Shown: positions 35,730-56,289, counted from the stretch's first letter. The stretch: DNA of 64,000 nt from Planctomycetota bacterium (GCA_965222115.1 CBDCTJ010000007.1:1696001-1760000); one strand, 5' to 3'. Program-made: numbers and translations. The notes: generated from the sequence alone by a model not told the origin.

Positions 35730-35904
35730 GGGTCGTCGCCGCTACCGTCCGGCCACGACCGGCATACACGGGGCGCTGTGTAGCAGGCAACCGAGCCCGC
35801 TTCACTCTCTTTTTGGGCACGAGTCGTGAAATCGGGCCATAGCGACGTGTTCGTTCGCGTCTGTGTTGTCCCCCCGAAGTGCGACGATTCGCGCCGGAGG
35901 GCCC

Positions 35905-37590
35905 ATGTGGCACGATGCCGAAGGTCGCCTGGACAAGGCGGTCGCACGCTACGACGAGGGAGATCTACGGACAGCGCGGACCATGCTCCGCGGGCTGGAT
36001 CGTCGGGGTGTAATTAGCCCGACCATCGATCTTTACCTCGGTCACTGTCACCTCGGCGAGGACGAGATTCCTGCAGCGATTCGTCGCTACCGACGTTGTG
36101 TGGCCCTCAGTCCCGACGATCCGGCACCATGGTTGGGGCTGGGTCTTTGTTACGGGCGCCTGGGTCGAATCCACCGTGCACTGCGCGCATTTGAAAATGC
36201 GTTGGCGCGAAATGAGAACATCGAGGACGCCCACTGCGGACTCACCCATTGCTACGCGCTGCTCGGGGACATGGAGCAAGCCGTTAAACACGCGCGACAT
36301 GCGGTGCGACTCGATCCCCGGTGTCCCCACGTCCATCGCCACATGGCACTGGCCTACCTCATTCGTGGTGAACCGTCGCAATCGCTCCGCGCGTGGCGCC
36401 GCGTGCGCGCCTTGGATCCGCTTTACCCCGAGCTGGCAGGCGGCATGGGACGCGCGCTACTCGATCTCGGACGGTACCGCGAGGCACGCGCGTCGTTTCA
36501 AATGGGTCTTGAGGGACCCATGGCGGCCGACGCCCACTTTGGACTCGGCGACGTCGCGCGGGTTCGCGGCGAGTGGGACGTCGCCACCACACATTACGAA
36601 CGCGCAGCGCGTATCGAGCCCGGCTTCAACGAAGCGCGCTATCGTTGGGCCGAGTCACTGCTCACGTTGGGACAACCTGTCGATGCGCGCCGCGCACTCA
36701 CGCCGCGATGGGAAGCCGACGAACCGTTGCGTCCGTATCCATCGGGGTTCGCACTTCTACGTGCCCGCATTGAGGCTGCCTGTGGCGCGCAAGCTACGGG
36801 ACTACGGTTGCTGCGCGACGAGCTGCGCGCTGCACAAACCGTCATCTTGGACGACGATGCAGGCACCTCATGGATCGACCGCATGAACGATCTTGGCGAG
36901 TACCTGCTCGATCGCGACCGATTGTTTGCTGCGCGTGCCGTGTTGCGGCGCGCGGGAAAGCGAGATGGGGGCACCGTACGAGCGTGGCGGTTGCTTGCGC
37001 GCGCCCAAGCGCGACTCGGCGACGGAAAACGCGCGCGCTCAACGTTGGCGCGAACGGCGCATCGTTGGCCCGAGGAAACCGAACTTGTATTGGATGGTTC
37101 GGCCGCGCAGTTCGCCGCAGGCCGTGTGGTATCGGCAGAACGCGCCTTACTTCACGGACTTGAACGCTGTCCTGTTTCGGCCGACCTTTGGGCCGCTGCA
37201 GGTGAACTCGCCCTGGAACGCGAGGACATCGATAGCGCTGCCATACGCGTTTCGGTTGCGCTTCGTTGCCATCCAAGACATCCATTGGCGTTGGGACTGC
37301 TCACACGCATTCACCTAGTGCGTGGCCATGCACGTCGTGCACTGCATGCTGGGCAAGCTGCAATGCGAGTCGTTCCACCGGGCGACCCTGCGATTCCCGC
37401 TTATGTCGAGGCCCTGTTGGCGGTCGATCAATGGCAGGCGGCTTTGCTACGCATTCGTCGTTACGTGCTCGATGCACCCGATGACCCCAATGGCTATCGC
37501 CTACTTGCTCGTTGTCACGAGCGTGCCGGTGACACAGCAGCGGCCGCAGTACAGCGACGGTTGGCGCGCCTAGTTGAGGGCAACAGGTAG
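35905..37590 (+). CDS. Tetratricopeptide-repeat protein
   Basis: GGAGG RBS before ATG 35905; serial TPR motifs ([28 protein letters not shown]). Confidence 0.85.
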
Positions 37591-37845: not shown

Positions 37846-40728
37846 ATGCACGCGATTCGTACACATAAAAACGAACGTCATTCTCGCCTCGCGTGGCCAG
37901 CGAAACTTGCTGCCTTCGCAACGTTTTGCATCGCGTCGGTGAGTGTTTCCTCTTGCGGCGGGAGCGGTGGGAGCGGACCCGGTCCCGACGGCACCGGGCA
38001 AGGACTGGAGATCATCAAGTTTCATCAGGCCGGTCTGGACACCGTTGCTGCGAACCAAACGTTGCGCATCGATTTTTCCGAAGCCGTAAACCCTGCGACC
38101 GTTTTTTCGGGATCCTTCATCGTCAAAGAGGGCGGCACCTTTGGTTTGCAAGTGCCCGGCACGGTGATCGTGGACGGATCTACCATCTTCTTCGAACCCC
38201 AGTTGCCATCTTTATGTGATCTTTCCGACGCGGGATTCAAGCCCGGTACTGAGTATCGCGTTCTAATCACGGGGAATCCCGAAGAGTTCTCTGTCAAGAA
38301 CACGCGCGGACAGCCGTTGAGTCGCACAGCGACCTTTTCGTTCACCACGCGTGCCGAAGGTGGCATTCTTCCCGTCTTTCAAGATCAGATCGCGGGCGCG
38401 GCGCCCTTTGTCACGCAAGTCACCCCCGCCGATGGTGCTCAAGCGGTCACGGTTGCGGCCGGCAACCAAGTCGTGCTCGACGTATCAGAAAATTTGGATC
38501 CGTGTACCGTCACACCCAATAGCGTCATGTTGACCATGGTTGAGAACGGCGACGCCAATCTCGCGACGAATGTTGCTGCCCCCAATGGAAATAGTTCGGG
38601 ATTTTACGCCGGAACGGATACCAGCGACCAGGTACCGGGACCGTTGGGCGTCAGTACGTGGGGCGCCGATGCATCTACGCCGCGCTCTCCGGTGCAAGTA
38701 ATTTTGTCGCGTGTTGAGGTCGTCCAGTCGCAGGCGTCTACCCAGATCATCATTACGCCCGACTTCGGAAAGTTCCCGGAGAACTCGTTGCTGAACGTGA
38801 CGCTTACCGCCGCAATTCAGGACTTTGGTTCTCAGCCGCTGACCGCGTTTAGCGCCTCGTTTACAACCGAGAATTTGCCGACGCAGTCCGACTCATATGT
38901 GTTGGAGGCTGCCGGCGAAACGGCGTTTGACGACGGATTGACGTCTGCCGATGTCAATACAACGCGTTCACCGAGTTTGATTCAAGGCTACCTCTTGCTT
39001 ACCGGTGACGGCGACAACGGCCCGTACGCGCCCACCGATACCCTCGTGGATCCGGCGTATCCCAACTACGCCGCGGGCACCTGCACGGAAGTGCCGTCCG
39101 ATAACGCCAAGGACGACTTCAATCCCTCTGCAGACGTGATTCTGGATACGGGGGCCACACCAAATGCTTGCGTCAATGAAGCGGACGGCTCAACGGCCGT
39201 CGTGTGGCAGTTTCAGAACTTTACGATTCCCTCAGGCGTAACGGTTCGTATCGTCGGTGTCAATCCCGCCATCATCCATGTCCAAAATAGTGTGAGCATC
39301 TCAAGCTCGGGCGCCCTCTTAGTACGAGGCGATGGAATGGCAGGCGTCCAAAACTCCAATGGGATTCAGGGGCGCGCCCTCAACTCAAGCAGCCAAACGC
39401 CCGTTCCGGGTGTCATCGGCGGTAAGGGCCACGCCGGTGCGGGCGATGGCGGTGATAGCGCCAACTCCAAGGGCACAGGTTCTATTGGTCAGTACGGTCA
39501 GCACGGCGAGAGCGGCTTCGGCGCCGACACCACGTTGCCGCAAGACGGGCAGGGTGTGGTCGGCGGTCCCGGTGGAGGACACGGAAACGTTCGCAGTACC
39601 CATCCCAACAACAGCGGTACCCGAGCTACCGGTACAGGTGGTGGTGGTGGCGGGCACGCAGTGGTTGGCGGCGCAGGCGGTTCGGTGCCGGGAACAAGTG
39701 CAACGTTGGTCGCCGCAGCCGATGGTGCGGGCGGTTCGGTCTATGGCGACACCAATTCGACCATGCGCACGCCGCTCGCCGGCTCCGGTGGTGGCGCCGG
39801 CGGTGCCAATAGCGGTACCCATGGTTCGCAGTGGACTCAGACATCCGCTGGTAGTGGTGGTGCCGGCGGCGGGTTCGTAGACATTTCCACGTTGAGCGGC
39901 GACATTTCGATTTCGGGAACGATCGACGCGAGCGGTGGTCGTGGGGGGGCTGGCATTGGCAATACCAATCTCTCGGTCCCCTGGAATGGATCGGGCGGTG
40001 GTGGCGGCGGATCCGGGGGTGGGGTTCGGTTGCTTACGCCGAACAACATTATTCTTGCAGGTGCCACAATCACCACGGCGGGTGGCGCAGGTGGCGTCGG
40101 CTACGCGGGCACCGGTGCAACGCCCAACAACGCTGGCGCCGGTGGCAATGGCCGGATTGTGATGGAGGCAAACTCCATCATCGGACTCTCAGGTTCAACC
40201 GTGACGCCTACGCTTGGCGAAACCGGCTACTACAGTGGCCCATTTGATGGCTCACGCTTTGTGGGTGGTGGAACCCGTCCCTCAGCAACAACGGAACGCG
40301 TTCTCATGGGTCCCTTGGATCCAGACTATGCCGAGCCGATCGCCGCAGACTTCATATGTGGTGTTCCCGCTATTGCGTCAAATGGCCCCAGTAAGACATC
40401 CATCATGATTGAGGTACGCGGATTCCAACTGCTGCCGGACGGAACGGCGGAGAATCCCGCGCCCGAACCATTGTGGACAACCGTGGGCTATTTCACGGAC
40501 TCGGGCGCACCCAACTCACCCAACTGGATTCCGGGTGCCAATCCTCCCGTGGCCGACGTTGGCCCGCTCCCCCCCGACAACGACGGGTTGGCCGGCGGCA
40601 TGAACTCAGTAGACTTTGCCGAGTATCTGCAGATTCGCGTCACGTGTTTCTTGCCTATCACCATGCAGCCATTCGATGCTGGTTCGTTCCTCGATCGCTG
40701 GACGATTCGCTTCTCGTCGAACCTATAG
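37846..40728 (+). CDS. Large lipoprotein with Ig-like (Big_5/SbsA-type) domains and a Gly-rich domain, paralogue 1
   Basis: Lipobox VSSC-GGSGG; IDFSEAVNPAT and SFTT Ig-like patterns; poly-Gly runs. Confidence 0.85.
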   Translation: MHAIRTHKNERHSRLAWPAKLAAFATFCIASVSVSSCGGSGGSGPGPDGTGQGLEIIKFHQAGLDTVAANQTLRIDFSEAVNPATVFSGSFIVKEGGTFGLQVPGTVIVDGSTIFFEPQLPSLCDLSDAGFKPGTEYRVLITGNPEEFSVKNTRGQPLSRTATFSFTTRAEGGILPVFQDQIAGAAPFVTQVTPADGAQAVTVAAGNQVVLDVSENLDPCTVTPNSVMLTMVENGDANLATNVAAPNGNSSGFYAGTDTSDQVPGPLGVSTWGADASTPRSPVQVILSRVEVVQSQASTQIIITPDFGKFPENSLLNVTLTAAIQDFGSQPLTAFSASFTTENLPTQSDSYVLEAAGETAFDDGLTSADVNTTRSPSLIQGYLLLTGDGDNGPYAPTDTLVDPAYPNYAAGTCTEVPSDNAKDDFNPSADVILDTGATPNACVNEADGSTAVVWQFQNFTIPSGVTVRIVGVNPAIIHVQNSVSISSSGALLVRGDGMAGVQNSNGIQGRALNSSSQTPVPGVIGGKGHAGAGDGGDSANSKGTGSIGQYGQHGESGFGADTTLPQDGQGVVGGPGGGHGNVRSTHPNNSGTRATGTGGGGGGHAVVGGAGGSVPGTSATLVAAADGAGGSVYGDTNSTMRTPLAGSGGGAGGANSGTHGSQWTQTSAGSGGAGGGFVDISTLSGDISISGTIDASGGRGGAGIGNTNLSVPWNGSGGGGGGSGGGVRLLTPNNIILAGATITTAGGAGGVGYAGTGATPNNAGAGGNGRIVMEANSIIGLSGSTVTPTLGETGYYSGPFDGSRFVGGGTRPSATTERVLMGPLDPDYAEPIAADFICGVPAIASNGPSKTSIMIEVRGFQLLPDGTAENPAPEPLWTTVGYFTDSGAPNSPNWIPGANPPVADVGPLPPDNDGLAGGMNSVDFAEYLQIRVTCFLPITMQPFDAGSFLDRWTIRFSSNL

Positions 40729-41058
40729 CCCTATCCCATTGCCCATTTATTTCGGCGTCCGAAGCGTCTCCCAGCACATCGGAGTTTAGCCTGGGCGGCC
40801 TGCCTCGCGCTGTGAGCGAAGATGCACTGAAACGTGTGCGAATCGCGCCGACTGAGTGCCGGGCTCGATGAGCCGAGTCTCGATTCAGGGAGCGGCGGGC
40901 TTCAGCGATGGACTCGCAAAGGGCGATTTGGAGGCAATTAGGCGACGTGAATTGGCCCCGAGACCCCTTCTCATTCGTGGAGGTACACGCTTTGCGCCCT
41001 ATCCTGCTGGTCCAGCATGGTCATGGCGTCACGACGGCGTCGTTTCAGGAGGCTCCGT

Positions 41059-43935
41059 ATGCTGCTCTCAACTACGCACCGATCCCTTCGAATCCGCAAG
41101 ACGTTTTCCTTTGTAGTTGCATGCGCCTTCTCGCTGAGTGCATTAAGTGTGCTTGCAGCCTGTGGCAGTGGAGGCAGCGGTCCAGGTCCCGATGGCACCG
41201 GTCAAGGCCTCGAAATCGTGAAGTTTCACCAAAACGGTCTCGATACGGTTGCTGCCAATCAGACGTTGCGCATCGACTTTTCGGAACCCGTTGATCCGTC
41301 TACCGTGTTTTCGGGTTCGTTTGTCGTAAAAGAGGGGAGCACGTTTGGCCTTCAGGTCGCGGGCACGACGTATGTCGATGGGTCCTCCATTTACTTCGAG
41401 CCACAGTTGCCTTCTCGCTGCGATCTGACCGACGCCGGGTTCAAGCCGGGCACGACGTACCGTGTGCTGATCACAGGTCATCCCGAAGAGTTTGCCGTGA
41501 AGAACACGCGTGGCCAGCCGTTGAGTGCCACGAAGAATTATTCGTTTACAACGCGTGCCGAAGGTGGGGTGCTTCCTGTATTCCAGGATCAAATCGCAGG
41601 TGCTGCGCCCGTCGTTACTCAGATTACACCGGCCGATGGATCCGAAGCAGTGACCGTCGCTACAGGAAATCAGATCATTCTCGACATCTCCGAAAACTTG
41701 GACCCCTGCACCGTCACGACCGACTCCGTCATGTTGACTATGGTTGAGAATGGCGACCCAAATCTCGGCTCGAACGTATTGGCGCCCAATGGCAATCAAT
41801 CCGGCTTTTACGCTGGTACTGATACAAGTGACCAAGTACCGGGTCCGTTGGGAGTACAGACGTGGGGTGCCGACGCCTCGACGACCCGCACACCTGCGCA
41901 GTTGATTCTGGCGAGCGTGGAAGTGGTTCAATCCCAAGCGTCGACGCAAATCGTCATTACGCCCGATTTCGGAAAATTTCCCGAGAACTCGCTGCTCAAC
42001 GTCTCGCTCACGGCGGCGATTCAGGATTTTGGTGCGCAACCGCTAACGGCATTTAGCGCTTCATTCACAACCGAGAATCTTCCTTCGCAAACCGACACGT
42101 ATGTACTGGACGCCGCCGGCGAAACAGCGTTCGATGACGCACTTAGCACCGCCGATGTGAACACAAGCCGTTCGCCCAGTCTTATTCAAGGCTTCCTTCT
42201 GCTCACGGGTGATGGCGACAACGGCCCCTATGCGCCCACCGACACGGTGGTGGACCCTGCCTATCCAAATTATGGGGCTGGGACATGCGCGGAGGTGCCA
42301 TCGGATAACACGAAGGACGACTTCATGCCGTCGGCAGATGTGATTCTCGATACGGGTGCTACGTTCAATCTTTGCACCAACGAAGCGGACGGATCTACCG
42401 CTGTCGTGTGGCAGTTCCAGAATTTCACAATCCCTTCGGGCATTACGGTGCGCATCATTGGCGTAAACCCAGCAATCATCCACGTTCAGGGCGATGTAAA
42501 CATCTCTAGTGGCGGTACCCTATTGGCAAAGGGCGATGGTGTTGGCGGGACGCAATCTGCGAACGGTCGGCAAGGCCGAAACGGCAACTCGAGCAGCTCG
42601 ACTCCCATCCCGGGAGTGACCGGCGGGGCAGGGGCCGCCGGCGGGGGTGACGGCGGTGATAGCGCGAATTCAAAGGGCACCGGCTCGATCGGTTTGACGG
42701 GGCAGCACGGTTCATCGGGCTTTGGAAGCGATGACACGCTGGCCCAGTCTGGTCAGGGCATCGTTGGCGGTGTCGGCGGCGGGCACGGCAACATTCAGTT
42801 GAAGCACACGTCGAGCAGCGCAAATCGTGCGACGGGTACGGGTGGCGGAGGCGGCGGTCACGCCGCCGTTGGTGGAACGGGTGGCGCTGTTCCGGGCACG
42901 GGCGGAACACTCTCGGGTGCCGCGGATGGCGCCGGCGGAGCCAAGTACGGGGATACCAATGCGACGATGCGAACGCCAATAGCGGGCGCAGGCGGAGGCG
43001 CCGGCGGCGCTTCGAGCGGATCTACGAGCACATCACAGTGGGTGAACGCGTCTGCAGGAAGTGGCGGCGCGGGCGGCGGGTTCGTAGACATCTCGACGTT
43101 GAACGGTGACATCGCGATTTCTGGATCGATCGATGCAAGCGGTGGCCGTGGCGGCGCAGGCACTGGCAACGCCAACGTTACTCCGGCTTGGAACGGCTCG
43201 GGCGCTGGTGGTGGCGGATCGGGTGGTGGCATTCGACTCTTGACACCCAACAACATCATTCTGGCCGGTGCTACAGTGACCACAGCAGGTGGAGCTGGCG
43301 GAACCGGCTACGCAGGCGCTGGGGCCACGCCCAACCTCGGCGGCACGGGTAGTGTGGGTCGCATTGTCATGGAAGCGGAGTCCATCATCGGACTTGCCGA
43401 TTCGACGGTGGTACCCACGCTGGGCGAAGACGGCTTTTATAGCGGTCCGTTTGATGGAACTCGATTCGTCGGCGGTGGAACGCGTCCCTCAGCCACGACA
43501 GAACGTGTGCTGATGGGGCCCCTAGATCCTGACTACATGGAACCCGTTGCCGGTGACTTCCTCGCGGGCATCCCTGCGGCAGCGACCAACGGCCCAAGTA
43601 AGACTGCAATCATGATTGAGGTGCGAGGGTTCCAGCTATTGCCCGATGGTACCGCCGACAATCCGTCACCGGAGCCCATGTGGACCACGGTGGGATATTT
43701 CACCGATTCTGGTGCACCAAACTCACCGAATTGGATCCCAGGTGCGAATCCCCCGCTCGCAGACATTGGCGTGCTTCCTGCAGATAACGACGGCCTAGCC
43801 GGTGGTATGAATTCGGTAGATTTCGCTGAATACCTCCAGCTCCGCGTGACCTGCTACTTGCCAATCGGTATGGAGCCCTTTGATCCGGGCTCGTTCCTCG
43901 ATCGCTGGACCATTCGATTCACGTCGAATTTGTAG
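41059..43935 (+). CDS. Large Ig-like/Gly-rich lipoprotein, paralogue 2
   Basis: AGGAGG RBS before ATG 41059; lipobox LAAC; colinear with paralogue 1 end to end. Confidence 0.85.
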   Translation: MLLSTTHRSLRIRKTFSFVVACAFSLSALSVLAACGSGGSGPGPDGTGQGLEIVKFHQNGLDTVAANQTLRIDFSEPVDPSTVFSGSFVVKEGSTFGLQVAGTTYVDGSSIYFEPQLPSRCDLTDAGFKPGTTYRVLITGHPEEFAVKNTRGQPLSATKNYSFTTRAEGGVLPVFQDQIAGAAPVVTQITPADGSEAVTVATGNQIILDISENLDPCTVTTDSVMLTMVENGDPNLGSNVLAPNGNQSGFYAGTDTSDQVPGPLGVQTWGADASTTRTPAQLILASVEVVQSQASTQIVITPDFGKFPENSLLNVSLTAAIQDFGAQPLTAFSASFTTENLPSQTDTYVLDAAGETAFDDALSTADVNTSRSPSLIQGFLLLTGDGDNGPYAPTDTVVDPAYPNYGAGTCAEVPSDNTKDDFMPSADVILDTGATFNLCTNEADGSTAVVWQFQNFTIPSGITVRIIGVNPAIIHVQGDVNISSGGTLLAKGDGVGGTQSANGRQGRNGNSSSSTPIPGVTGGAGAAGGGDGGDSANSKGTGSIGLTGQHGSSGFGSDDTLAQSGQGIVGGVGGGHGNIQLKHTSSSANRATGTGGGGGGHAAVGGTGGAVPGTGGTLSGAADGAGGAKYGDTNATMRTPIAGAGGGAGGASSGSTSTSQWVNASAGSGGAGGGFVDISTLNGDIAISGSIDASGGRGGAGTGNANVTPAWNGSGAGGGGSGGGIRLLTPNNIILAGATVTTAGGAGGTGYAGAGATPNLGGTGSVGRIVMEAESIIGLADSTVVPTLGEDGFYSGPFDGTRFVGGGTRPSATTERVLMGPLDPDYMEPVAGDFLAGIPAAATNGPSKTAIMIEVRGFQLLPDGTADNPSPEPMWTTVGYFTDSGAPNSPNWIPGANPPLADIGVLPADNDGLAGGMNSVDFAEYLQLRVTCYLPIGMEPFDPGSFLDRWTIRFTSNL

Positions 43936-44147
43936 CCCGCGCGGAAGTCTTGGAGCGCTCCTGGAGGGCGTTTGTTAGGTTGTTCTTGTTGTGCGAAGCC
44001 GCACAAGTGCCCGCGCGACTCGAATCGGTCTCGTCGCGCGGGATCGCGCACCTCCACGAACGGAGCTTTGGGGTCGAAGGACCGCGTCTGGGCAAGAATA
44101 TGGGGCTTTCCGCCTGAGTCGACTCCAGGCGAAGGGAGCTTCTCCAC

Positions 44148-44156
44148 TGCTATACT
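44148..44156 (+). promoter_or_regulatory. Putative extended -10 promoter for paralogue 3
   Basis: TGcTATACT about 100 bp upstream of the start. Confidence 0.35.
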
Positions 44157-44255
44157 CCTGGTACGCCCTTTGCGGTTTCGCATGCGTATCACCTTCTCAT
44201 TCGCGCCGATCCCACGCTTTCGATCCGGCCAGCGATGAGGCATTCGGAGTCATTC

Positions 44256-47120
44256 ATGTCCCTGAGTACCAGTCGATTTACGCGGATTCGTACCGCGCTC
44301 ATGGTGTGTGCCGTCCTGTCCCTAGGAATACTGTCCCTAGGAATGCTGACGGCCTGTGGAAGTGGCGGAAGCGGTCCCGGTCCTGATGGCACCGGCCAAG
44401 GCTTGGAGCTAGTTAAGTTTCACCAAGACGGCATCGACACCGTTGCGGGCAACACCATCCTTCGCGTCGATTTTTCCGAGCCCATCGATCCCAATACGGT
44501 GTTCTCGGGCTCCTTTGTCGTGAAAGAGGGTAGCTCCTTTGGGTTGCAAGTCCCGGGCACCACGTACGTCGTTGGTTCTTCGATTTTCTTCGAGCCCCAA
44601 CTGCCGTCGAATTGCGATCTCAGCGACGCCGGCTTCAAGCCCGGTACCGACTACCGAATTCTGATTACGGGTCATCCGGAAGAGTTTGCGGTGAAAAACA
44701 CGCGCGGCCAGCCCCTGAGCCGCACGTTGAACATGGGCTTTACTACGCGCCCCGAAGGTGGCGTTTTGCCCGTGTTCGAAGATCAGATTGCAGGCGTTGG
44801 GCCCACAGTGACCGCAATGACGCCTGTCGATGGCGCACAGGCCGTGAGTGTTGCAACGGGTAACCAGATCGTTCTGGATATCTCGGAAAACTTGGACCCC
44901 TGCACCGTCACGACCGACTCCGTAATCTTGACCATGGTCGAGACCGGCGACTCAAACCTGGCCAGCAACGTTCAGGCGCCCAATGGCAACCAATCAGGTT
45001 TTTATGTGGGTACAGACACCAGCGATCAGGTGCCCGGTCCCACAGGCGTAAACACGTGGGGCGCCAGCGCCTCTGTTCCTGTTACGCCATCACAGGTCAT
45101 CAACGCCGACGTACAGATTGTGCAGTCTCAGGCGTCAACACAGATCGTAGTAACGCCCACTTTCGGGAAGTTTCCTGAGAACGCACTCCTTGTGGTGCAG
45201 TTGACCGCGGCGATCCAGGACTTTGGCGGGCTTCCGCTCACGGCCTACAACGGTTCGTTCACTACAGAAAATCTCCCGATGCAGTCCAATACCTATGTCA
45301 TGGAAGCCGATGGAGAGACGCCGTTTGACGAAGAGCTAACAACCTCGGATGTCGATACGGAGCGTGCCAACAGCCGCATTCAAGGGTATTTGCTGCTGAC
45401 CGGGGATGGCGACAACGGACCCTTTGCGCCCACAGATACCGTCATTCCCCCATCCTATCCCAATGGCGTATCGTGTACCGACGTGCCCAACGATAACTCG
45501 AAAGATGACTTCAACCCATCCGGGGACGTCATTCTAGATACTGGATCTACGATCAACGCCTGTGTAAACAACGTTGACGGTTCGACCGCCGTTGTATGGC
45601 GCTTCCAGAATTTCACGATTCCATCTGGCGTTACGGTGCGCATTGTTGGCGTGAATCCCGCCATCATACACGTGCAAAATGACGTCAACATCGCTGCCAC
45701 AGCCCGGTTGTTGGTTCGCGGTGACTCCGGCAGTCCGTTCAATTCCGACGGTCGCTCGGGACGCTACCTCAATACCACAAACTCATCGCCTACGCCGGGT
45801 GTGACGGGCGGCATCGGTGTCGCGGGCGCCGGCGATGGCGGCGATAGCTCAAACGCGAACGGTTCGGGCCCGCTTGGCAACTACGGTCAGAGTGGTTCGA
45901 GTGGTTATGGTTCAGACGACACGTTGCCCAACATGGGGCAAAATGTTTTGGACGGCCCCGGTGCCGGTCAAGGCAATGTGCGTGTTACATATTCTTCCAG
46001 CGGCAATCGACCTACGACGGGAACATCCGGTGGCGGCGGTGGTCACGCCGAAGTCGGCACTTCCGGAACATCCGGCACGGATCTCGGTACGCTCGCTGGA
46101 GCTGCGGATGGCGCCGGAGGAAGTTCGTACGGTGATACCAACGCAACGCTTCGCACGCCCATAGCAGGTGCAGGCGGGGGTGGTGGTGGTTCCGTTGACT
46201 ACACTTCAACGTCGTACCAGTGGTACGACACCACGGGCGGCAGTGGGGGCGCCGGCGGTGGGTTTGTCGACATCACAACACAAAACGGCGATATCAATAT
46301 TGCTGGAACCATCGATGCTGCGGGTGGCAGGGGCGGAAGTGGCGCCGCCATGACTCGCTACATACCCAATTGGCAAGGCTCGGGTGCTGGTGGCGGTGGA
46401 TCGGGTGGTGGCATCCGGCTTCTCACACCCAACAACATCGTATTGATTGCAGCCACCGTTACAGCCGCGGGCGGAGCCGGTGGTGCGGGCGCAACCGGTG
46501 CTGGTGGAACGGCCAACAACGGTGGCGCGGGCAGCAACGGTCGCATCGTTATGGAGGCCGATTCAATCACTGGCATCGCGGGTTCTACGGTGTCGCCCAC
46601 GCTTGGCGATGCGGGCTTCTACAGTGGCCCCTTCGATGGTTCGCGCTTCGTTGGTGGTGGAACCACGCCGGGCGCCACGAGTGGATTGATTCAAGTGGGG
46701 CCCATGAAACCCACCTATCTCGAACCGGTCGCAGCGGATTTCACTGTCGGTGTACCTGCTGGCGCCTCAAATGGACCTGGCAAGACCTGCATGTTGCTTG
46801 AGGTACGCGGCTATGAAATGAAGCCCGACGGCACGGCTGACAAACCGGCGATTGAACCCATGTGGACCACGGTGGGTTACTTCACCGATTCGGGGAATCC
46901 GACCAGTCCCAACTGGATCCCGCTAGCGAATCCTCCACTGGCCGATATCGGTGGCGCAATGCCCGCAGACAACGATGGCCTTATTGGTGGCATGGCGTCG
47001 CTATTCGAAATGGAGTTCGTACAGTTCCGTCTTACGTGCTATTTGCCCTCCTCCATGGGGCCCTTTGATCCCGGTCCCTACATGGACCGCTGGAACATTC
47101 GATTCACGTCGGATCAATAG
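44256..47120 (+). CDS. Large Ig-like/Gly-rich lipoprotein, paralogue 3
   Basis: GGAG RBS before ATG 44256; lipobox LTAC; colinear with paralogues 1 and 2 but the most diverged. Confidence 0.85.
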   Translation: MSLSTSRFTRIRTALMVCAVLSLGILSLGMLTACGSGGSGPGPDGTGQGLELVKFHQDGIDTVAGNTILRVDFSEPIDPNTVFSGSFVVKEGSSFGLQVPGTTYVVGSSIFFEPQLPSNCDLSDAGFKPGTDYRILITGHPEEFAVKNTRGQPLSRTLNMGFTTRPEGGVLPVFEDQIAGVGPTVTAMTPVDGAQAVSVATGNQIVLDISENLDPCTVTTDSVILTMVETGDSNLASNVQAPNGNQSGFYVGTDTSDQVPGPTGVNTWGASASVPVTPSQVINADVQIVQSQASTQIVVTPTFGKFPENALLVVQLTAAIQDFGGLPLTAYNGSFTTENLPMQSNTYVMEADGETPFDEELTTSDVDTERANSRIQGYLLLTGDGDNGPFAPTDTVIPPSYPNGVSCTDVPNDNSKDDFNPSGDVILDTGSTINACVNNVDGSTAVVWRFQNFTIPSGVTVRIVGVNPAIIHVQNDVNIAATARLLVRGDSGSPFNSDGRSGRYLNTTNSSPTPGVTGGIGVAGAGDGGDSSNANGSGPLGNYGQSGSSGYGSDDTLPNMGQNVLDGPGAGQGNVRVTYSSSGNRPTTGTSGGGGGHAEVGTSGTSGTDLGTLAGAADGAGGSSYGDTNATLRTPIAGAGGGGGGSVDYTSTSYQWYDTTGGSGGAGGGFVDITTQNGDINIAGTIDAAGGRGGSGAAMTRYIPNWQGSGAGGGGSGGGIRLLTPNNIVLIAATVTAAGGAGGAGATGAGGTANNGGAGSNGRIVMEADSITGIAGSTVSPTLGDAGFYSGPFDGSRFVGGGTTPGATSGLIQVGPMKPTYLEPVAADFTVGVPAGASNGPGKTCMLLEVRGYEMKPDGTADKPAIEPMWTTVGYFTDSGNPTSPNWIPLANPPLADIGGAMPADNDGLIGGMASLFEMEFVQFRLTCYLPSSMGPFDPGPYMDRWNIRFTSDQ

Positions 47121-47181
47121 ACGCGAATCGGTAGATAAGATGGGTTGAGCGCGGTTACTCGCGCCCCCTGTCCATTGCCTG

Positions 47182-47218
47182 AAGCGGGCCGAGAACTCTC
47201 GGCCCGCTTTCGCTTTTT
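47182..47218 (+). terminator. Intrinsic terminator after the lipoprotein array
   Basis: AAGCGGGCCGAG-aact-CTCGGCCCGCTT 12-bp perfect stem followed by TCGCTTTTT. Confidence 0.8.
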
Positions 47219-49418: not shown

Positions 49419-52400
49419 TCAACGTTGCCGCGGACGCGACAGGCGAACCTCATCCTCCCGCACGTCTCGGATCAATGTGCCTGCCTCAATCAGTGATTCT
49501 GTGGCCCGCTTGACCGCCTCACCGATCTTGGAACCACGTCGCGCAAACCCAAAGACACGCCCGGTCTCTCGCAACAGGTCTTCAACGGTGAGACTCAGAT
49601 GGGCGTCAACAATGCACAACATGGCGGCTTCGACCTCTTCGGGCGCAATGTGTTCGATATCTCGCTGTACGCCGTCGCCCGGGCGACGGGGCTGAATGCT
49701 CGTCGTGCCCGGCTTCCACAGATACGAACCGCGTCGTTCCACCTCGCCCCGCGCTTCCGCGTCACGAATGGCTTCTTGCACACGGGTTTGCGTCTTGCTC
49801 GTCACACGTGACATGCCCCACGCAATCGAAAGGCGCCGCGCGGCCACGTCCTGATGAACAGGTGCTTCCTTGGCAACGACCTTGATCACGCAATTGCGGA
49901 TGCGATGAAGCGGGACCACGTGGAATTCTTCGGCAGCTCCCTGAGGTCGTAGGTGTATGGCGTTGTAGTCCACAATGCCGGGCAGATCATCGGTTTGAAG
50001 TTCGTCGGCAAGCCATGCCTCGTCGTTCGTATCATTCGTTGAGGTACCTTCGCTGTTGATGGCGACTGGGCCATTGGGTTCCGTCGCTTGCGGCGCGGGC
50101 TCACGCAATGCACGCTGAATGGCTTGCACGCACGCATCGGGCGTCCGTACCCAGTCCGGTGACCACACATGCAAGACCCGCCATCCCAGTCGTCGAAGTA
50201 GCGCGGCGCGCGAACGCTCGCGATCGCGCGATGTAGCCGCATCGCGATACCCCGGTCCGTCACACAATAGGCCCAAAGCGAACCGGTCTCTTTGCTTTTC
50301 CGGAATCGCCACATCCACTTGAAACGCGGAGGCGCCCACGCTGTGTACCGCGTCGTGTCCTTCCCGCGCGAGTGCTTCCACGATCGCGCGCATCATTTCA
50401 GGCGCGCCATCGTCTTTGGTGTCGCGTTTTGCGGGATGGGGCCACCCCGTTCCTTGCATACCGCGGCGTGCCGTTTCCAAGTACGCGCGAAGCAAGTGGG
50501 CCCCGCGGCTTTCGGTTCGATCCAGGGCGATGTCCTCTGGCTGAATCGACGCGTAGACAATGACTTGTTTTCGGGAACGCGTAACGGCCACGTTGAGTCG
50601 CCGGTCGCCGCCGTTTGCGCTCAGCGGACCGAACAGCAAGCGGAACGTGCCTTCCGGGTTGCGCGCGTATCCCACGCTAAAGAGAATGACGTCGCGCTCG
50701 TCTCCCTGTACCGACTCAAGGTTCTTCACGAACACGGGCTCATTGGATTCCAAATCGAAGCGATGATCGAAGGACGGGTCGTCGGCGCGCAGTTCGTCGA
50801 TTGCATCCCACACCGCGTCGCGTTGTGAGGCGCTAAAGGTCACCACACCTACGCTGTCACGCGGTCGCGTCGTCAGGATGTCGAATACATGCTTGGCCAC
50901 CGCCCTCGCTTCTATTGGGTTGGTTCGTGATCCGCCGCGCCCGCCGTAAAACACGCCGTCGGGCACATGGACGAATGAAATTCCAAGTGCGGCGGGGTCG
51001 CGATCGGCATTCGGAAACGTAACGAGGCCGTTCTCATAGAAGTGTCGATTGCTAAACGAAATCAAACTCTCGTCGAGACTTCGATAGTGCCACCTTAGCG
51101 ACACATGCGGTAGAGGGCCGGCCTGACATTCATCCAATACGCTGGGCAAGTCGGTGAGTTCACCTGCCAGCAGCGCCTCACTCTCGTCTTCCTCGAAGCG
51201 CCGCGTGAAGAATCGTGTGGGCGGTAACTGTTTGGAGTCCCCCGCAACAACGACTTGCTTGGCGCGGGCGATGGCGCCAATCGCATCCTCGGTACAGATC
51301 TGTGAGGCCTCGTCAAAGATCACAATATCAAGTTCGTTGTCACCCGGTGGCAAATAGGTCGCCACGCTGAGCGGGCTCATCATGAGGCACGGCTTCAGCG
51401 CCCGCAGCAGTCGGGGAATACGATCAAAGAGCACGCGCGTGGGCAAGTGTCGTCGCTCTTTGCGCATCTCCCGCTTGAGAATACTGACTTCACTGTCGCC
51501 CGTGGCGGCGGTCGTGGGTGGAGGAATGTCCGCGCGAAGTGTGCGCGCTACGCGTGTGCATGCCTGTGTCAACTGTTGCTGATCCAATTCACAGAAGCGT
51601 TCGATTCGCTTCTCGCGTGTGGTGGCATCGAAACTGCCAAGCTCGTCTACGGTACTCAACAATCGATCGGCAAAGGCGCGCCAGAACGTTCGAAACCACG
51701 TGTCAACCAAGCGGTGGCTCGCGGCTCCCGTTTCTTCAAATGCATCCAAGTACTCGCCCAACCCCTTCGTCGAGGCATCTCCTGCGGCCCGATGCCATGC
51801 CACCCACGTGGGCAACGATGCCGTGGAGGTAGATGCCTCGTCGGCAAATGTGCGAACTTCAATGATCGGGATATCGTTTAGCGCGTGGCCAAATCGCGCC
51901 TCGACGTCCAGGTCGAGCGTTGCACACACATCATTCATGGCATGAACAAACGTGTCTGCATCCCGTGTCCATGACGCCGATGCATCGAGGAAGATCTGCT
52001 TATCTTCTGCGTTGGCCGCGTTTGCTAACTGCGTGCGCGATATCGTCTGTGACGTGAGTGCCAGGGCTTGAGAAATCCACGTGGTGTGTTTGGCCACATG
52101 CGAGAGATCGCTGCGCGCCCCAGTGTACTCGTTGCCAAAGGCCGACAGCAGCGAGGCATCGCCTGCGTCCAACTCATGGTTGTACTGCTTCACTGCAACA
52201 AGTCGCGCTACGTCGCGTGGGAGATCAACGTCGCGCTTGGTCCGGCCCGATGCGAGCTGCGCGGCGAGCATCTTTTTTGCGCGGCGTCGTCGAAACCAGC
52301 CAACGATGAATCCGCCCGAACGAGACAGCTTTGCGAGACGTTCTGCATCGAGCGCGAGGACGCCATCGTCATAGGTCTTCTGTAGCGCGGCGATCTCCTC

Positions 52401-54170
52401 CGCGCGAGCTTTGCTTGCGGCAAGTAGTGATTGGATGCGGGGCGACGCGCCGGCCCAACTGGCGTCTTCAATCCACGCCGCAGGCGGCCGGGTGGAGTGC
52501 CCAAGATGAAGCGCAAGGTTCGACAGCGCGCCGCCTTCGGCGATGCTGCCGGGGGCATCGCACGGAAGCGACGAGGCAAGTTGATCGCGTGCCCGCTCAA
52601 GATCGTCTAGCGCGGAGAGCAGTACGTTAATCTTGCGTCGAACGTCGTCCGCCGTGCCTACGCCGAGTTGCGTGAGTCCCACGTGGCGCCACGGATGCTG
52701 CTGGATGGGATCGACGGCACGGTGCAGCGGTACGAGTTCTTCCAACGTGCGTTGGGTCTCTTTGAGCGCACCGCGCGTCGTAGCGAGCGGATCACCCACG
52801 TCAAACGAGCACGGCGGTAAGTGTTGGAGGCGTGCGGCGCGACCAAAGACTTCAAATGCGCTGTACGACGATTCACCGCGGGGCGCATGCAGGGCCTCGA
52901 CGTACGCACGAAGCGTGTCTTGCAATGTTCGCAGTTCATCGAGTCCCGTTGTCTTGTCCGGCGCATCGGGCGCCCACTGCTTCCAGGCCGACGCGAGGCT
53001 TTGCACAATCTCGCGCTTGTTGGCTTTGCGACTATGAACTTCCAAACAAAACGGTCCGAGCCCCGCTTGATCGAGTCGTCGCTTGACGACATTGAGCGCA
53101 GCAATTTTTTCGCTCACGAAGAGCACGCGTTTCCCGCGCGCAAGGCATTCAGCGATAATGTTTGCAATGGTCTGCGACTTGCCGGTGCCGGGCGGTCCTT
53201 GCAGGACAAAGCTCTGGCCACCTCGCGCGGCCAGGATCGCCGCCTGTTGACTGCTGTCGGCCAATAGAATCTGATACGAATCGGCCGGGTCCATCGCGGC
53301 TTCGACGGTGCTTGGCGTTGGCAGGTCCGACGTGCCTTCGCCCATGAGCGAGACCCCTTGGGCGAGACTTTGCACAACCGCATGGGAAGCAACGGCGGCC
53401 TCGTTCTGCAACAGGTCTTGATAGAGCGGGATCTTTGCAAACGAGAACAGGGCGAGCGCCATGTCGTTGGCCACCGACCAACCATCGCGTCCTTTCGCCA
53501 GCGTTTCAAATACCTCGCGCACAACCTGCATGGGATCTTCGCTCTCGGCCCAGCCTTCGGGAAGCGATATGTCGATGCCGAGTTCTTTGCGCAGCTTTAC
53601 GATGAGTGCAGGATTTACGCGTAACTCATCATCAAAAAGTTTGAGTTGGAACGCACCGCGAGCCCCACGCCGTGTTAGCTCGACTGGAATCAGAAGCAGC
53701 GGGGCGCGTAGGGGGCGGGGATCTTCGACAGTCGTAAAGGTGAACATACCAAGTGCGATATGCAGGGTGTTGAACCCCTGTTCCTCCAACATGGCACGGC
53801 TCGACCGAAAGAGGTTGAGCAAGATGCGGTTCATGCGCTCGGATTCAAGATCGCACTGCAACGTGCTGTCGGGCCGAGGCGGCGACGTGTCGTTCGCATC
53901 GCCGGGGGCTTCTGACGTCTCCTTGGTGCTAGGCGACGGGGGCTTGGCGGGCTTACCCGCAAAGGTGTAGCGGCGCCCGTAGATCAGGCGACGGGCGACC
54001 TCGTGGGGGTCCTCTCCCACGAAGTTCAATGTGCTGGCCTTCGTGGCACGGAATGCGAGCAGGCGATTGGCGCGCGAGAGATCGATGAGTTTGTCTCGCC
54101 ACTCAGCAATGCGCTTAGCGACCAGCGGCGGCACAGCCCCAGTCGATGGCGTCGAAGCGTCCTCGGTCAT
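49419..54170 (-). CDS. DUF4011 - SF1 (DNA2/Upf1-like) helicase - restriction-endonuclease-like - DUF3320 protein (Hhe-like)
   Basis: WRDKLIDLSRANRLL (DUF4011), QGPPGTGKSQTIAN, DEASQ, GDSKQLPP, HYRS, KNLESVQGDERD, RRLNVAVTR, CDG...RDRER...LGWRVLHVWSPDW, KEAPVH (DUF3320-like). Confidence 0.9.
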   Translation of the reverse strand: MTEDASTPSTGAVPPLVAKRIAEWRDKLIDLSRANRLLAFRATKASTLNFVGEDPHEVARRLIYGRRYTFAGKPAKPPSPSTKETSEAPGDANDTSPPRPDSTLQCDLESERMNRILLNLFRSSRAMLEEQGFNTLHIALGMFTFTTVEDPRPLRAPLLLIPVELTRRGARGAFQLKLFDDELRVNPALIVKLRKELGIDISLPEGWAESEDPMQVVREVFETLAKGRDGWSVANDMALALFSFAKIPLYQDLLQNEAAVASHAVVQSLAQGVSLMGEGTSDLPTPSTVEAAMDPADSYQILLADSSQQAAILAARGGQSFVLQGPPGTGKSQTIANIIAECLARGKRVLFVSEKIAALNVVKRRLDQAGLGPFCLEVHSRKANKREIVQSLASAWKQWAPDAPDKTTGLDELRTLQDTLRAYVEALHAPRGESSYSAFEVFGRAARLQHLPPCSFDVGDPLATTRGALKETQRTLEELVPLHRAVDPIQQHPWRHVGLTQLGVGTADDVRRKINVLLSALDDLERARDQLASSLPCDAPGSIAEGGALSNLALHLGHSTRPPAAWIEDASWAGASPRIQSLLAASKARAEEIAALQKTYDDGVLALDAERLAKLSRSGGFIVGWFRRRRAKKMLAAQLASGRTKRDVDLPRDVARLVAVKQYNHELDAGDASLLSAFGNEYTGARSDLSHVAKHTTWISQALALTSQTISRTQLANAANAEDKQIFLDASASWTRDADTFVHAMNDVCATLDLDVEARFGHALNDIPIIEVRTFADEASTSTASLPTWVAWHRAAGDASTKGLGEYLDAFEETGAASHRLVDTWFRTFWRAFADRLLSTVDELGSFDATTREKRIERFCELDQQQLTQACTRVARTLRADIPPPTTAATGDSEVSILKREMRKERRHLPTRVLFDRIPRLLRALKPCLMMSPLSVATYLPPGDNELDIVIFDEASQICTEDAIGAIARAKQVVVAGDSKQLPPTRFFTRRFEEDESEALLAGELTDLPSVLDECQAGPLPHVSLRWHYRSLDESLISFSNRHFYENGLVTFPNADRDPAALGISFVHVPDGVFYGGRGGSRTNPIEARAVAKHVFDILTTRPRDSVGVVTFSASQRDAVWDAIDELRADDPSFDHRFDLESNEPVFVKNLESVQGDERDVILFSVGYARNPEGTFRLLFGPLSANGGDRRLNVAVTRSRKQVIVYASIQPEDIALDRTESRGAHLLRAYLETARRGMQGTGWPHPAKRDTKDDGAPEMMRAIVEALAREGHDAVHSVGASAFQVDVAIPEKQRDRFALGLLCDGPGYRDAATSRDRERSRAALLRRLGWRVLHVWSPDWVRTPDACVQAIQRALREPAPQATEPNGPVAINSEGTSTNDTNDEAWLADELQTDDLPGIVDYNAIHLRPQGAAEEFHVVPLHRIRNCVIKVVAKEAPVHQDVAARRLSIAWGMSRVTSKTQTRVQEAIRDAEARGEVERRGSYLWKPGTTSIQPRRPGDGVQRDIEHIAPEEVEAAMLCIVDAHLSLTVEDLLRETGRVFGFARRGSKIGEAVKRATESLIEAGTLIRDVREDEVRLSRPRQR

Positions 54171-56145: not shown

Positions 56146-56289
56146 CTCATGCAAGTCGCCCGTTTCGTAGGTGGGATGACCTACTTCCGACGCTGCTAGT
56201 GTGGCGTCGATCGATAGCGACCTTGACGATCGAAGGCAATGCCGTTCGAAGGCAATGACGTCGGACGACGAGATTTAGGAACTCAATCC

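Follow-up and report, generated by a model that had tools for sequence, protein, structure and literature searches.

The window analysed here, 64,000 nt from a Planctomycetota bacterium (GCA_965222115.1, CBDCTJ010000007.1:1696001-1760000), contains three co-oriented genes that lie in tandem on the plus strand and encode paralogous lipoproteins. Gene A (37846-40728, +) encodes a 960-aa protein that matches database protein P0001 at 100% and supplies the reference numbering for all domains. Its paralogs are gene B (41017-43935, +), a 972-aa ORF with 79% identity to A, and gene C (44235-47120, +), a 961-aa ORF with 67% identity to A; the database calls for these two products are 958 and 954 aa long, with implied starts at 41059 and 44256, respectively. 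The three proteins are colinear, with a mean column identity of 84% in a three-way alignment, in agreement with an earlier sequence-only reading of the locus that had described three colinear paralogs of about 955 aa. Database labels within the family are solely 'Ig-like domain-containing protein' or 'hypothetical'.

The same reading held that a single terminator closes the array, and this is indeed what is observed: a terminator-like hairpin with a 13-bp stem, including 9 GC pairs, and a T-rich tail follows the last gene (47181-47210, +), and is the only strong one, with none reported in the two intergenic gaps (the scan returned 13 sites in all, compared with 10.4 +/- 3.0 expected from shuffles). 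The upstream regions of A, B and C yield no meaningful alignment (mean column identity of 57%) and no shared promoter or regulatory motif, and the search for sigma-70-like sites found none. In a single study, four runs yielded contigs, possibly from the source sample of the window itself, that span both gene junctions with no differences but carry no informative variants at the population level in the variable loops considered below. No RNA run was listed as containing the sequence. The neighbors of the array in the window are housekeeping genes (GatAB, ClpXP, trigger factor, Rho and EF-G), and no phage genes are present in the window.

The gene family to which A, B and C belong is concentrated in a single family of Planctomycetota, in 20 of the 24 genomes, with 1 to 6 matches per genome. 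The cellular nature of the family, as read from the locus, is borne out, and the copy number of these lipoproteins varies among genomes. In the phylogenetic tree, A, B and C group in a single clade (SH-aLRT 100) with three proteins encoded on a related metagenomic contig: one of these pairs with A and another with C, and B and the third contig protein (P0004) fall inside the A clade without resolved branching. Separate duplications are apparent in the tree for three other genomes (G010, G016 and G021), and adjacent same-strand copies are found in five other genomes. The chromosomal slot is conserved in 5 of the 8 related loci examined, and the same slot carries one, two or three copies. A, B and C are old tandem duplicates within an unnamed lipoprotein family that undergoes repeated duplication and birth-and-death evolution. 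The distant full-length relatives P0148, P0167, P0211 and P0259 contain no Pfam domain, and a word search with the head region alone retrieved only fragments of the same family.

The proteins begin with a predicted signal peptide and a lipobox, read by eye, that ends in Cys37 (37846-37956, +). The lipobox is VSSC in A, LAAC in B and LTAC in C, and the corresponding column is Cys in 99 of the 108 family members; the hydrophobic N-terminus followed by the lipobox Cys identifies all three proteins as predicted Sec/SPII lipoproteins. In the AlphaFold2 (AF2) model of the gene A product, residues 20-30 are helical and residues 1-18 have low pLDDT. The lipid-anchor Cys is followed by a Gly/Ser/Pro-rich tether (residues 38-52; 37957-38001, +), with pLDDT below 50 for residues 33-45, and then by Ig-like domain 1 (residues 53-172; 38002-38361, +), which belongs to the Big_5 family (Pfam PF13205), with scores of 58.6-67.2 bits in A, B and C against a cut-off of 23.6. 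The closest VIA matches of this domain are the N-domain of alpha-amylase B (Z 12.0), CopC (Z 10.0-10.6) and SbsC (Z 10.1). Ig-like domain 2 (residues 186-345; 38401-38880, +) matches CopC (5n1t_M, Z 10.9), and the two domains jointly match the MG0-NIE-MG1 portion of E. coli alpha-2-macroglobulin (Z 10.6) and domains A and B of LdtMt2 (Z 9.1). With dN/dS of 0.04-0.24, the Ig-like N-terminal half fits the conserved stalk that had been proposed, an assignment also backed by the Pfam membership and by the VIA matches at Z 10-12.

The region beyond the stalk appears to be a jelly-roll sandwich split in two parts, residues 346-430 (38881-39135, +) and residues 801-960 (40246-40725, +), both recognized through VIA matches; the second part is strongly conserved among the paralogs. 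The aligned ranges of these matches run from residues 346-350 to 956-960, yet include just 121-146 aligned residues; they comprise the tail of phage Pa223 (Z 8.4), BcsB (Z 8.0) and the ligand-binding domains of Eph receptors (Z 7.5-7.6). The two parts would thus constitute one jelly-roll domain into which the Gly-rich head is inserted. The C-terminal domain of the sequence-only reading is accordingly conserved, as stated there, but seems to be one half of the jelly-roll rather than a separate domain. A search of the ESM Atlas with the C-terminal part gave a top score of 0.86, to unnamed clusters. The full-length AF2 model of gene A has a pLDDT of 90.7 and a pTM of 0.78.

The Gly-rich head (residues 431-800; 39136-40245, +) is built from a predicted right-handed beta-helix, (GGx)n tracts that are conserved, and tips that vary. 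When modeled as a separate domain (residues 425-800), it reaches a pLDDT of 95.4 and a pTM of 0.94, and the 10-residue blocks that contain the (GGx)n tracts, which DSSP assigns to neither helix nor strand, have pLDDT values of 97-99. Thus, the Gly regions are, as had been anticipated, predicted to be ordered and not disordered, with the highest confidence in the model. Residues 493-800 contain 28-31% Gly and 6-9 tracts of at least two GGx units per paralog, and the median family member contains 8 (GGx)n tracts.

The best VIA match of the head is FHA (1rwr; Z 11.2, rmsd 2.8, 121 aligned residues), followed by HpmA (Z 10.4) and, further, by HxuA, EtpA and HMW1. These five helices of two-partner-secretion (TPS) domains match at Z 9.4-11.2 and rmsd 2.2-3.0, with 121-129 aligned residues that span model residues 1-376. 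Among the matches listed, the strong ones to solved structures are right-handed beta-helices only, and they cover about one third of the head residues. DSSP places predicted three-strand rungs at residues 431-492 and 677-787, the latter including three regular rungs (677-694, 726-743 and 770-787) that are separated by Gly arms. In the model, then, the core of the head is a right-handed parallel beta-helix. Its invariant or nearly invariant polar residues are N444, D447, N473, H604, D679, D694, R728, R770 and E774.

Searches against curated families and solved structures do not assign the head: there is no Pfam family at E<=10, no NCBIfam model, no PHROG match at E<=1 and no Foldseek match in the PDB at E<=1e-3. 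With the full-length model, Foldseek retrieved only tandem-Ig matches from the PDB, a result that is uninformative on the head, and the head was therefore folded separately. In the ESM Atlas, the nearest clusters to the head are unnamed hypotheticals (score 0.95); the nearest named clusters, G8, DUF8003 and Mtd_N, scored at chance level (0.80-0.83) and were discarded.

Four loops in the head had been singled out in the sequence-only reading, and the four loop strings quoted there are exact. Loop 1 (residues 507-519; 39364-39402, +) has an entropy of 2.78 at residues 509-519 (mean 1.72) and a length of 3-15 residues across the family. Loop 2 (residues 581-595; 39586-39630, +) has an entropy of 2.87 at residues 583-596, and none of the 12 columns of region 582-593 is identical among the paralogs. 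Loop 3 (residues 656-667; 39811-39846, +; entropy 2.76) is predicted to form a small beta-hairpin with DSSP strands at 655-659 and 662-666, and loop 4 (residues 704-715; 39955-39990, +) has an entropy of 2.67 at residues 704-709. Non-identical columns among the paralogs account for 43 of the 53 loop positions compared to 297 of the 865 other positions of the mature proteins (Fisher odds ratio 8.2, p 1.6e-11) and to 97 of the 181 other columns of the Gly region that are not invariant Gly (odds ratio 3.7, p 2e-4), both p-values being inflated because the loops were picked for being variable. The family entropy and the gene pairs from other genomes are independent of that choice. The claim that the paralogs differ most in the quoted loops withstands scrutiny, in that the four most divergent 12-column windows of the mature protein (582-593, 497-508, 651-661 and 701-712) lie on or adjoin the four loops. 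Other divergent stretches among the paralogs include 278-289, 609-619 and 816-827.

Across the family, low-entropy Gly tracts (0.2-0.4) alternate with nine segments of high entropy (2.6-3.0), and the 68 Gly columns conserved at >=80% have a mean entropy of 0.24. The proposed alternation of conserved Gly tracts with variable, indel-rich segments is therefore evident at the family level; the number of exactly four variable loops is not, there being about nine such segments by entropy, which, like the Gly tracts, are located between the rungs of the helix. Outside Gly, coil positions of the head have a mean entropy of 2.25 (n=184) compared to 1.81 for the other domains (n=303; Mann-Whitney p 4e-7), and of the 14 segments whose smoothed entropy exceeds 2.2, 9 map within the head. 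Variable patches outside the head are located at residues 239-246, 275-281, 346-354, 398-402 and 870-873. The tips vary in length (for example, 5-29 and 1-15 residues), are enriched in Tyr (2.2x), Lys (1.9x), Trp (1.8x), Asn (1.7x) and Ser (1.6x), and are depleted in Ile, Leu, Val, Phe, Asp and Glu. Retention of a Trp in loops 3 and 4 holds for the three paralogs (W663 and W713) but not family-wide, where neither column is Trp-conserved: Phe, Tyr or Trp occupies 26 of the 44 filled cells in column 663 and 49 of the 67 in column 713.

The four usable gene pairs, all from other genomes and none used to define the loops, have, pair by pair, loop dN/dS values of 0.33, 0.08, 0.47 and 0.79, compared with 0.16, 0.06, 0.20 and 0.23, respectively, for the rest of the head; among A, B and C themselves, saturation of synonymous sites (pS 0.65-0.87) precludes the use of dN/dS. 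Thus, the loops evolve 2-3.5 times faster, with dN/dS never exceeding 1. The predicted peaks in entropy and dN/dS are present inasmuch as both are raised at the loops, but with dN/dS below 1, diversifying selection is not demonstrated, and the variation is accounted for equally well by relaxed constraint on exposed loops and by selection for new specificities. We detected no reverse transcriptase, diversity-generating retroelement (DGR), cassette, mobile gene or phase-variation element among the ORFs of the window that were scanned; the locus is therefore not an active hypervariation system, and a DGR or cassette mechanism was rejected.

The gp38 proteins, adhesins at the tip of phage long tail fibers (S16, PDB 6F45; PP01, PDB 9v85), likewise consist of ordered Gly-rich motifs that alternate with variable segments, and this element of the proposed gp38-like adhesin logic stands. 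A sequence relation was not found, however, with no gp38 relation in Pfam at E<=10 or PHROG at E<=1 and no tblastn match in 50,697 phage records, and the structural match is weak (PP01 9v85_C: VIA Z 5.8, rmsd 3.9, 131 aligned residues; Foldseek E 2.5, TM 0.13/0.18); a phage protein with a gp38 domain matches the head in BFVD at E 0.13. Unlike gp38, the planctomycete proteins carry the Gly tracts on a predicted beta-helix spine, as part of a cellular lipoprotein of 960 aa; they have about nine variable segments and lie outside any phage context. Like the head, which appears to be inserted in a jelly-roll, the glycine-rich domain of ALK/LTK is an ordered Gly-rich module within a beta-sandwich. 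In ALK/LTK, a polyglycine-II honeycomb is set in a TNF-like sandwich, and ALK is not known to have a beta-helix. The parallel drawn with ALK/LTK is not reflected in sequence: no Pfam family matches the head alone at E<=10, and the family profile, when compared to PDB sequences, retrieved only scFv-linker noise, neither gp38 nor ALK; ALK is also absent among the 50 VIA matches listed and the Foldseek matches listed, an absence that is not evidence against a hexagonal polyglycine-II honeycomb fold. Structures of the ALK/LTK domain are available (PDB 7N00 and 7NX1; PMC13243192).

The best solved-structure matches of the head are the helix adhesins of the TPS and autotransporter types (FHA 1rwr, HpmA 4w8q, HxuA 4i84, EtpA 8cpk, HMW1 2odl and Ag43 7koh). 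Both the TPS adhesins and the modeled head are right-handed parallel beta-helices from end to end, and the TPS proteins are adhesin-type. However, the alignment includes only 121-129 of the 376 residues, and the Gly arms have no counterpart in the TPS helices; moreover, in contrast to TPS exoproteins, the helix is internal, starting at residue 431 behind the lipobox and two Ig-like domains. No TPS-domain family was found in Pfam, and the ORFs scanned in the window include neither a TpsB nor a barrel partner, so that the proteins do not qualify as TPS exoproteins.

Gly-rich polyproline-II (PPII) bundle domains with variable loop edges are described for the gp38 tip, ALK/LTK and the predicted PE_PGRS sails (10.1101/2023.11.25.568672, PMC13243192, PMC9436101), the last being predicted polyglycine-II sandwiches (PMC9436101). 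The mycobacterial PE_PGRS sails share with the head GGx tracts, an irregular variable loop edge, tolerance to indels and membership in a multigene family. The differences are that the proteins described here have no PE domain (Big_5 is the only Pfam hit), a beta-helix spine, another type of anchoring in another phylum and far less Gly (28-31% in residues 493-800), with 6-9 tracts instead of dozens. The closest fold matches of all are predicted viral Gly-rich proteins in BFVD, 12 of which match at E<=1e-3 (E 1.2e-11, TMq 0.49 and 24% identity over 334 columns for the top match). They include a Bathycoccus virus 'PA14 domain-containing protein', an Ostreococcus virus protein, 'collagen-like' proteins of Pandoravirus and Orpheovirus, and proteins of uncultured Caudovirales. 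These are predictions without a solved structure or known function, compared here by fold, and their 'collagen' names probably reflect composition.

The family is an undescribed, binder-like lipoprotein family, and the explanation that we favor, with moderate confidence, is that the head is a ligand-binding module on a lipid-anchored stalk, in which the helix and the Gly arms provide a constant scaffold and the approximately nine tips form a specificity surface. Under this scenario, the protein would be anchored through the lipid at the conserved Cys, extended by the Gly/Ser/Pro tether and the two Big_5 Ig-like domains, and would present a distal head composed of the jelly-roll sandwich with an inserted right-handed beta-helix of about 370 residues. 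The connections between rungs would be drawn out into long arms that run out and back and consist of conserved (GGx)n tracts, which most likely form polyglycine-II-type helices packed side by side; each arm would end in a short tip of variable sequence and length, with many Tyr, Trp, Asn, Ser and Thr residues. The tips would cluster in space. The paralogs would offer different specificities. The tip-bearing head probably binds something outside the cell, a polysaccharide or the surface of another cell being the most plausible ligand. Because diderm lipoproteins can face the periplasm, exposure of the protein at the surface is an assumption of this model.

Several other explanations have to be weighed against such a binder. 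We consider it rather unlikely that the proteins are structural, S-layer-like components of the envelope that have no specific ligand, with the variation stemming from neutral drift of exposed, unconstrained tips or from evasion of phages or predators for which the protein serves as a receptor. The similarity of Ig-like domain 1 to SbsC domains of the S-layer (Z 10.1), loop dN/dS below 1 throughout, and the location of the gene in a chromosomal slot that is conserved and surrounded by housekeeping genes are all compatible with this possibility, as is the presence of the gene in 20 of the 24 genomes, the distribution expected of a core envelope part. However, enrichment in Tyr, Trp, Asn and Ser and a semi-conserved aromatic residue in loop 4 are more typical of contact surfaces, and repeated retention of diverged duplicates would be superfluous for a purely structural role. 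A lower probability attaches to a polysaccharide-active or polysaccharide-binding beta-helix of the lyase, hydrolase or tailspike type, in which the jelly-roll would provide a carbohydrate-binding module and the shape of a substrate groove would depend on the tips. Such an activity could account for the nearly invariant polar residues of the helix, for the weaker fold matches to GH110 galactosidases, K1 capsule lyase, PL6 alginate lyase and phage tailspikes (Z 4.1-7.3), and for the presence of BcsB and a GH43 accessory domain among the jelly-roll matches (Z 7.5-8.0). Nevertheless, the tool rates Z values of 4.1-7.3 as common, non-enzymatic helices of adhesins or secretion domains match best, no lyase or hydrolase family was detected in Pfam or NCBIfam even at E<=10, and no CAZyme or transporter neighbors were seen among the window ORFs scanned.

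Slightly less probable again is the architecture originally envisaged, a stand-alone polyglycine-II bundle of the gp38 or ALK type with exactly four specificity loops on one face. The conserved, ordered (GGx)n tracts that are neither alpha nor beta, as well as the weak recovery of PP01 gp38 and of the phage protein with a gp38 domain, are what such a bundle would predict, but the bundle alone is not supported as a description of the scaffold: the strong solved-structure matches listed are beta-helices that extend along the whole head, three-strand rungs are predicted at 431-492 and 677-787, the variable segments number about nine, and a sequence relation was found with neither gp38 nor ALK. 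Finally, an ice-binding or antifreeze lipoprotein is highly improbable. The head matches DUF3494-type ice-binding proteins (Z 8.3-9.1), snow-flea antifreeze proteins are described as Gly-rich PPII bundles (10.1101/2023.11.25.568672), and a beta-helical lipoprotein of a Flavobacterium has been reported to show antifreeze-like activity (PMC13413566), but what sets the head apart is its irregular, variable and indel-rich portions, unlike the flat, regular and conserved faces that bind ice; Pfam gives no DUF3494 match at E<=10, and the fold matches reflect the generic beta-helix.

Among solved proteins, ordered Gly-rich PPII or polyglycine-II domains are few, those named in 10.1101/2023.11.25.568672 being snow-flea antifreeze protein, Obg, gp38 and ALK/LTK. 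The family described here would add a hybrid in which Gly tracts decorate a beta-helix, in an adhesin layout and in an abundant but poorly studied phylum. The three diverged paralogs represent a natural loop-swap set for tip specificity, and the indel tolerance of the scaffold could interest protein designers. A bolder and quite tentative proposal, which we regard as doubtful, is that these proteins are cellular, non-phage modular binders of planctomycetes with a fold that has no solved representative, a beta-helix spine with polyglycine-II hairpins that bear about nine CDR-like tips rich in Tyr, Trp, Ser and Asn; that they diversify by tandem duplication and loop divergence without a mutagenic element; and that the same class of fold recurs in proteins of giant viruses and phages that now bear the mistaken label 'collagen-like'. 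If that were the case, the family would reveal a widespread, unrecognized recognition scaffold and a natural counterpart to the combination of jelly-roll and glycine domain seen in ALK.

The three tandem lipoprotein genes, A (37846-40728; an ORF of 960 aa, with the database gene call also at 960 aa), B (41017-43935; 972 aa, called at 958 aa) and C (44235-47120; 961 aa, called at 954 aa), are arranged head to tail on the + strand, with intergenic gaps of ~290-300 bp. Their description in the sequence-only reading as a colinear, conserved trio is confirmed by the ORFs and the protein alignment, with B and C being 79% and 67% identical to A, respectively. The single terminator proposed to close the array corresponds to a terminator-like hairpin (47181-47210, + strand), the sole strong one, located 61 nt past the stop codon of C. 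Comparison of the regions upstream of A, B and C detected no recognisable similarity, and a search for sigma-70-like sites at the array returned none. Both gene junctions are spanned without difference by contigs from public runs (one study, possibly including the source sample), and therefore the array is not an assembly artefact.

A scan of the window ORFs for mobile genes, a secretion partner or a diversity-generating element near the array found none. The gene directly upstream (35863-37590, +) encodes a TPR protein of 575 aa that lacks an evident signal peptide; of eight related loci, five keep this gene next to a lipoprotein gene, an adjacency that may be no more than synteny between close relatives, with no functional link behind it. 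A gene for a tricorn-like protease (1473 aa; 26621-31042, +), which consists of PD40 beta-propeller repeats, Tricorn_C1, PDZ and Peptidase_S41 domains, is kept near the array in related genomes. Eukaryote-like signalling genes are also densely clustered in the window; they encode an ankyrin-repeat protein (854 aa; 6201-8765, +), an adjoining fusion of a Ser/Thr kinase with many ankyrin repeats (1652 aa; 8769-13727, -) and, next to the latter, an FHA-domain kinase (13821-15002, -), with a fourth kinase further along (56239-57588, +). Finally, a 1583-aa protein (49419-54170, -) combines DUF4011, a superfamily 1 helicase (AAA_11/AAA_12), a REase_MTES_1575 nuclease domain and DUF3320, an architecture that we take to be often that of defence-type helicase-nucleases.

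The lipoproteins belong to a real, unnamed, phylum-restricted family, the members of which are annotated in databases only as 'Ig-like domain-containing protein [Planctomycetota/Planctomycetia]' or 'hypothetical'. At E<=1e-3, a word-index search retrieved 142 proteins, about 110 of them full-length with 38-52% identity, and an exhaustive search yielded 512 representatives, of which 51 also pass E<=1e-30. The genome from which the window comes carries three copies, all in the array. Copy number varies among the 40 relatives surveyed: 20 of the 24 same-family genomes contain 1-6 matches each, compared to none of the 11 genomes of the sister family and one of five elsewhere, the latter in the Ig region only. 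In a phylum-wide scan with the glycine-rich region alone, 17 of 301 genomes matched (including the window's own), among them 9 of the 10 other genomes of the home family, and distant matches of 36-44% identity were found in four further families.

Neighbouring same-strand copies are present in five further genomes, and 5 of the 8 loci examined share a chromosomal slot that holds one, two or three copies and is flanked upstream by genes for EF-G and the TPR protein and downstream by two ORFs, that at 47250 and a prenyltransferase-like one. In a tree of 27 rows (20 genome loci, the three window genes and the database proteins P0002, P0004, P0006 and P0007, with the remaining members left out), A, B and C form a clade of their own with three proteins from one related metagenomic contig (SH-aLRT 100), one protein of that contig is paired with A and another with C, B and the contig's third protein, P0004, are unresolved within a four-member clade containing the A pair, and the duplications in three related genomes (G010, G016 and G021) are independent. 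In another relative, TGA/TAG stops split one family gene into three fragments (G013:C10:143018-145825); this copy is a pseudogene, and the genome has at least two intact copies besides.

At the N-terminus, a hydrophobic helix precedes a lipobox whose Cys is kept in 99 of 108 members and is followed by a low-confidence Gly/Ser/Pro tether. The full-length AlphaFold2 model (108 sequences; mean pLDDT 90.7, pTM 0.78) drops below pLDDT 50 solely at residues 1-18 and 33-45 (numbering of A throughout). Two Ig-like domains (residues 53-172 and 186-345) were identified by a Pfam Big_5 match and by VIA, a structure search independent of Foldseek, which aligned them with CopC, SbsC, alpha-2-macroglobulin MG and LdtMt2 domains (Z 9-12). 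Additional VIA matches with ranges from 346-350 to 956-960 and only 121-146 aligned residues are jelly-roll sandwiches (Z 7.5-8.4), including phage tail proteins, BcsB, Eph ligand-binding domains and a GH43 accessory domain. We infer that residues 346-430 and 801-960 would form one sandwich into which the glycine-rich region (residues 431-800, hereafter the head) is inserted; because the Z-scores are middling, this assignment is provisional.

The four loops that had been singled out between the Gly tracts of the head match the proteins exactly and map to residues 507-519, 581-595, 656-667 and 704-715. A, B and C differ at 43 of the 53 loop columns vs 297 of the remaining 865 mature columns, and, of all 12-column windows in the mature protein, the four with the greatest divergence overlap or adjoin these loops. 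Because the loops had been picked for their variability, we relied on two tests independent of that choice, namely entropy across the family and gene pairs from elsewhere. In an alignment of 108 full-length members, the mean entropy is 1.72, compared to 0.24 for the 68 conserved Gly columns of the head, and inter-Gly segments peak at 2.6-3.0; thus, the loops are indeed entropy peaks, but there are nine such segments (509-519, 538-551, 563-573, 583-596, 611-626, 636-639, 655-666, 704-709 and 753-759) rather than four. Non-Gly coil is more variable in the head than in the remaining domains (2.25 vs 1.81, p 4e-7), where five variable patches are also present.

Synonymous sites are saturated among A, B and C, and dN/dS was accordingly estimated for unsaturated pairs from further genomes. 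The four loops evolve faster than the remaining head in all four pairs (0.33 vs 0.16 for G021a/b, 0.08 vs 0.06 for G006a/G024a, 0.47 vs 0.20 for G006b/G024b and 0.79 vs 0.23 for G010a/b), but the ratio is always below 1. In an adjacent pair of recent tandem duplicates (L031/L032, G021:C120), dS is 0.09 in the jelly-roll vs 0.33-0.56 in the Ig domains and head, and dN peaks in the variable tips between the Gly tracts (0.20), a pattern suggesting that gene conversion evens out the C-terminal part while the loops remain distinct. The tips are enriched in Y (2.2x), W (1.8x), N (1.7x) and S (1.6x), and depleted of aliphatic and acidic residues. The Trp noted in loops 3 and 4 is kept among the three paralogs but not across the family, where 49 of the 67 filled cells at column 713 hold an aromatic residue. 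All three paralogs contain D-T-N-S/A-T in the same columns (residues 635-639 of A; window 39748-39762), which by eye we take to fit the extended bacterial N-glycosylation sequon D/E-x-N-x-S/T, and N-x-S/T occurs in several loop tips.

At the sequence level, the family is linked neither to gp38 or ALK/LTK nor to any other solved protein: there was no match in Pfam (head alone, E<=10), NCBIfam, PHROGs or, by tblastn, 50,697 phage records, and the family profile retrieved only scFv-linker noise from PDB sequences. In structure, gp38 of phage PP01 aligns with the head within the tool's 'common' range (VIA Z 5.8, rmsd 3.9, 131 aligned). The closest fold matches overall are predicted viral proteins in BFVD (12 at E<=1e-3), headed by a Bathycoccus virus protein (E 1.2e-11, TMq 0.49), with a gp38-domain protein at E 0.13 only. 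The gp38-like logic holds as an analogy but not as membership, and the accompanying fold description is right only in part. Pandoravirus, Orpheovirus and uncultured Caudovirales proteins labelled 'collagen-like' or 'collagen triple helix' also match the head (E 1e-9 to 1e-4); these labels may be composition artefacts.

The head is confidently predicted and has no solved counterpart, with no Foldseek match in the PDB at E<=1e-3. In the head-only model (residues 425-800, 121-row alignment; pLDDT 95.4, pTM 0.94), the (GGx)n blocks reach pLDDT 97-99 and the variable tips 81-93, so that the Gly regions appear ordered, disorder having been named beforehand as a refuting outcome. We infer a PGII geometry for the Gly tracts, with which the sequence signature of the head is compatible: (GGx)>=2 tracts number 6-9 per paralog (family median 8, range 5-10), and PMC13243192 lists this motif for glycine-rich PPII bundles. 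DSSP assigns most of residues 493-676 to neither helix nor strand, and finds regular three-strand rungs at 431-492, 677-694, 726-743 and 770-787. VIA recovered right-handed beta-helices, namely FHA (Z 11.2) and HpmA, HxuA, EtpA and HMW1 (Z 9.4-10.4), in alignments that stretch over the entire head model, yet with only about one third aligned. We read the model as a beta-helix spine in which the rungs would be connected by long glycine arms running out and back, such as residues 695-725 (SGGRGGAG - tip - GSGGGGGGSGGG) and 744-769 (AGGAGGVG - tip - GAGGNG); as equivalent positions of successive rungs stack linearly, the tips should line one edge of the head.

Such a helix might alternatively be polysaccharide-active, or the protein might bind ice, ice-binding proteins being, along with bactofilin and Ag43, the next VIA matches of the head. 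Further alternatives are the literal PGII bundle originally proposed and a structural envelope protein, the loops of which would drift or evade phages; the dN/dS values below 1 count against a binding role. The best-supported reading is nevertheless that A, B and C are envelope-anchored putative binding proteins, because the layout is adhesin-like, the composition of the tips is paratope-like, indels are tolerated in the tips, the tips outpace the remaining head in evolution, and diverged duplicates have been repeatedly retained. Under the binding-protein reading, a constant stalk and a constant beta-helix/glycine scaffold would present the variable tips as the contact surface.
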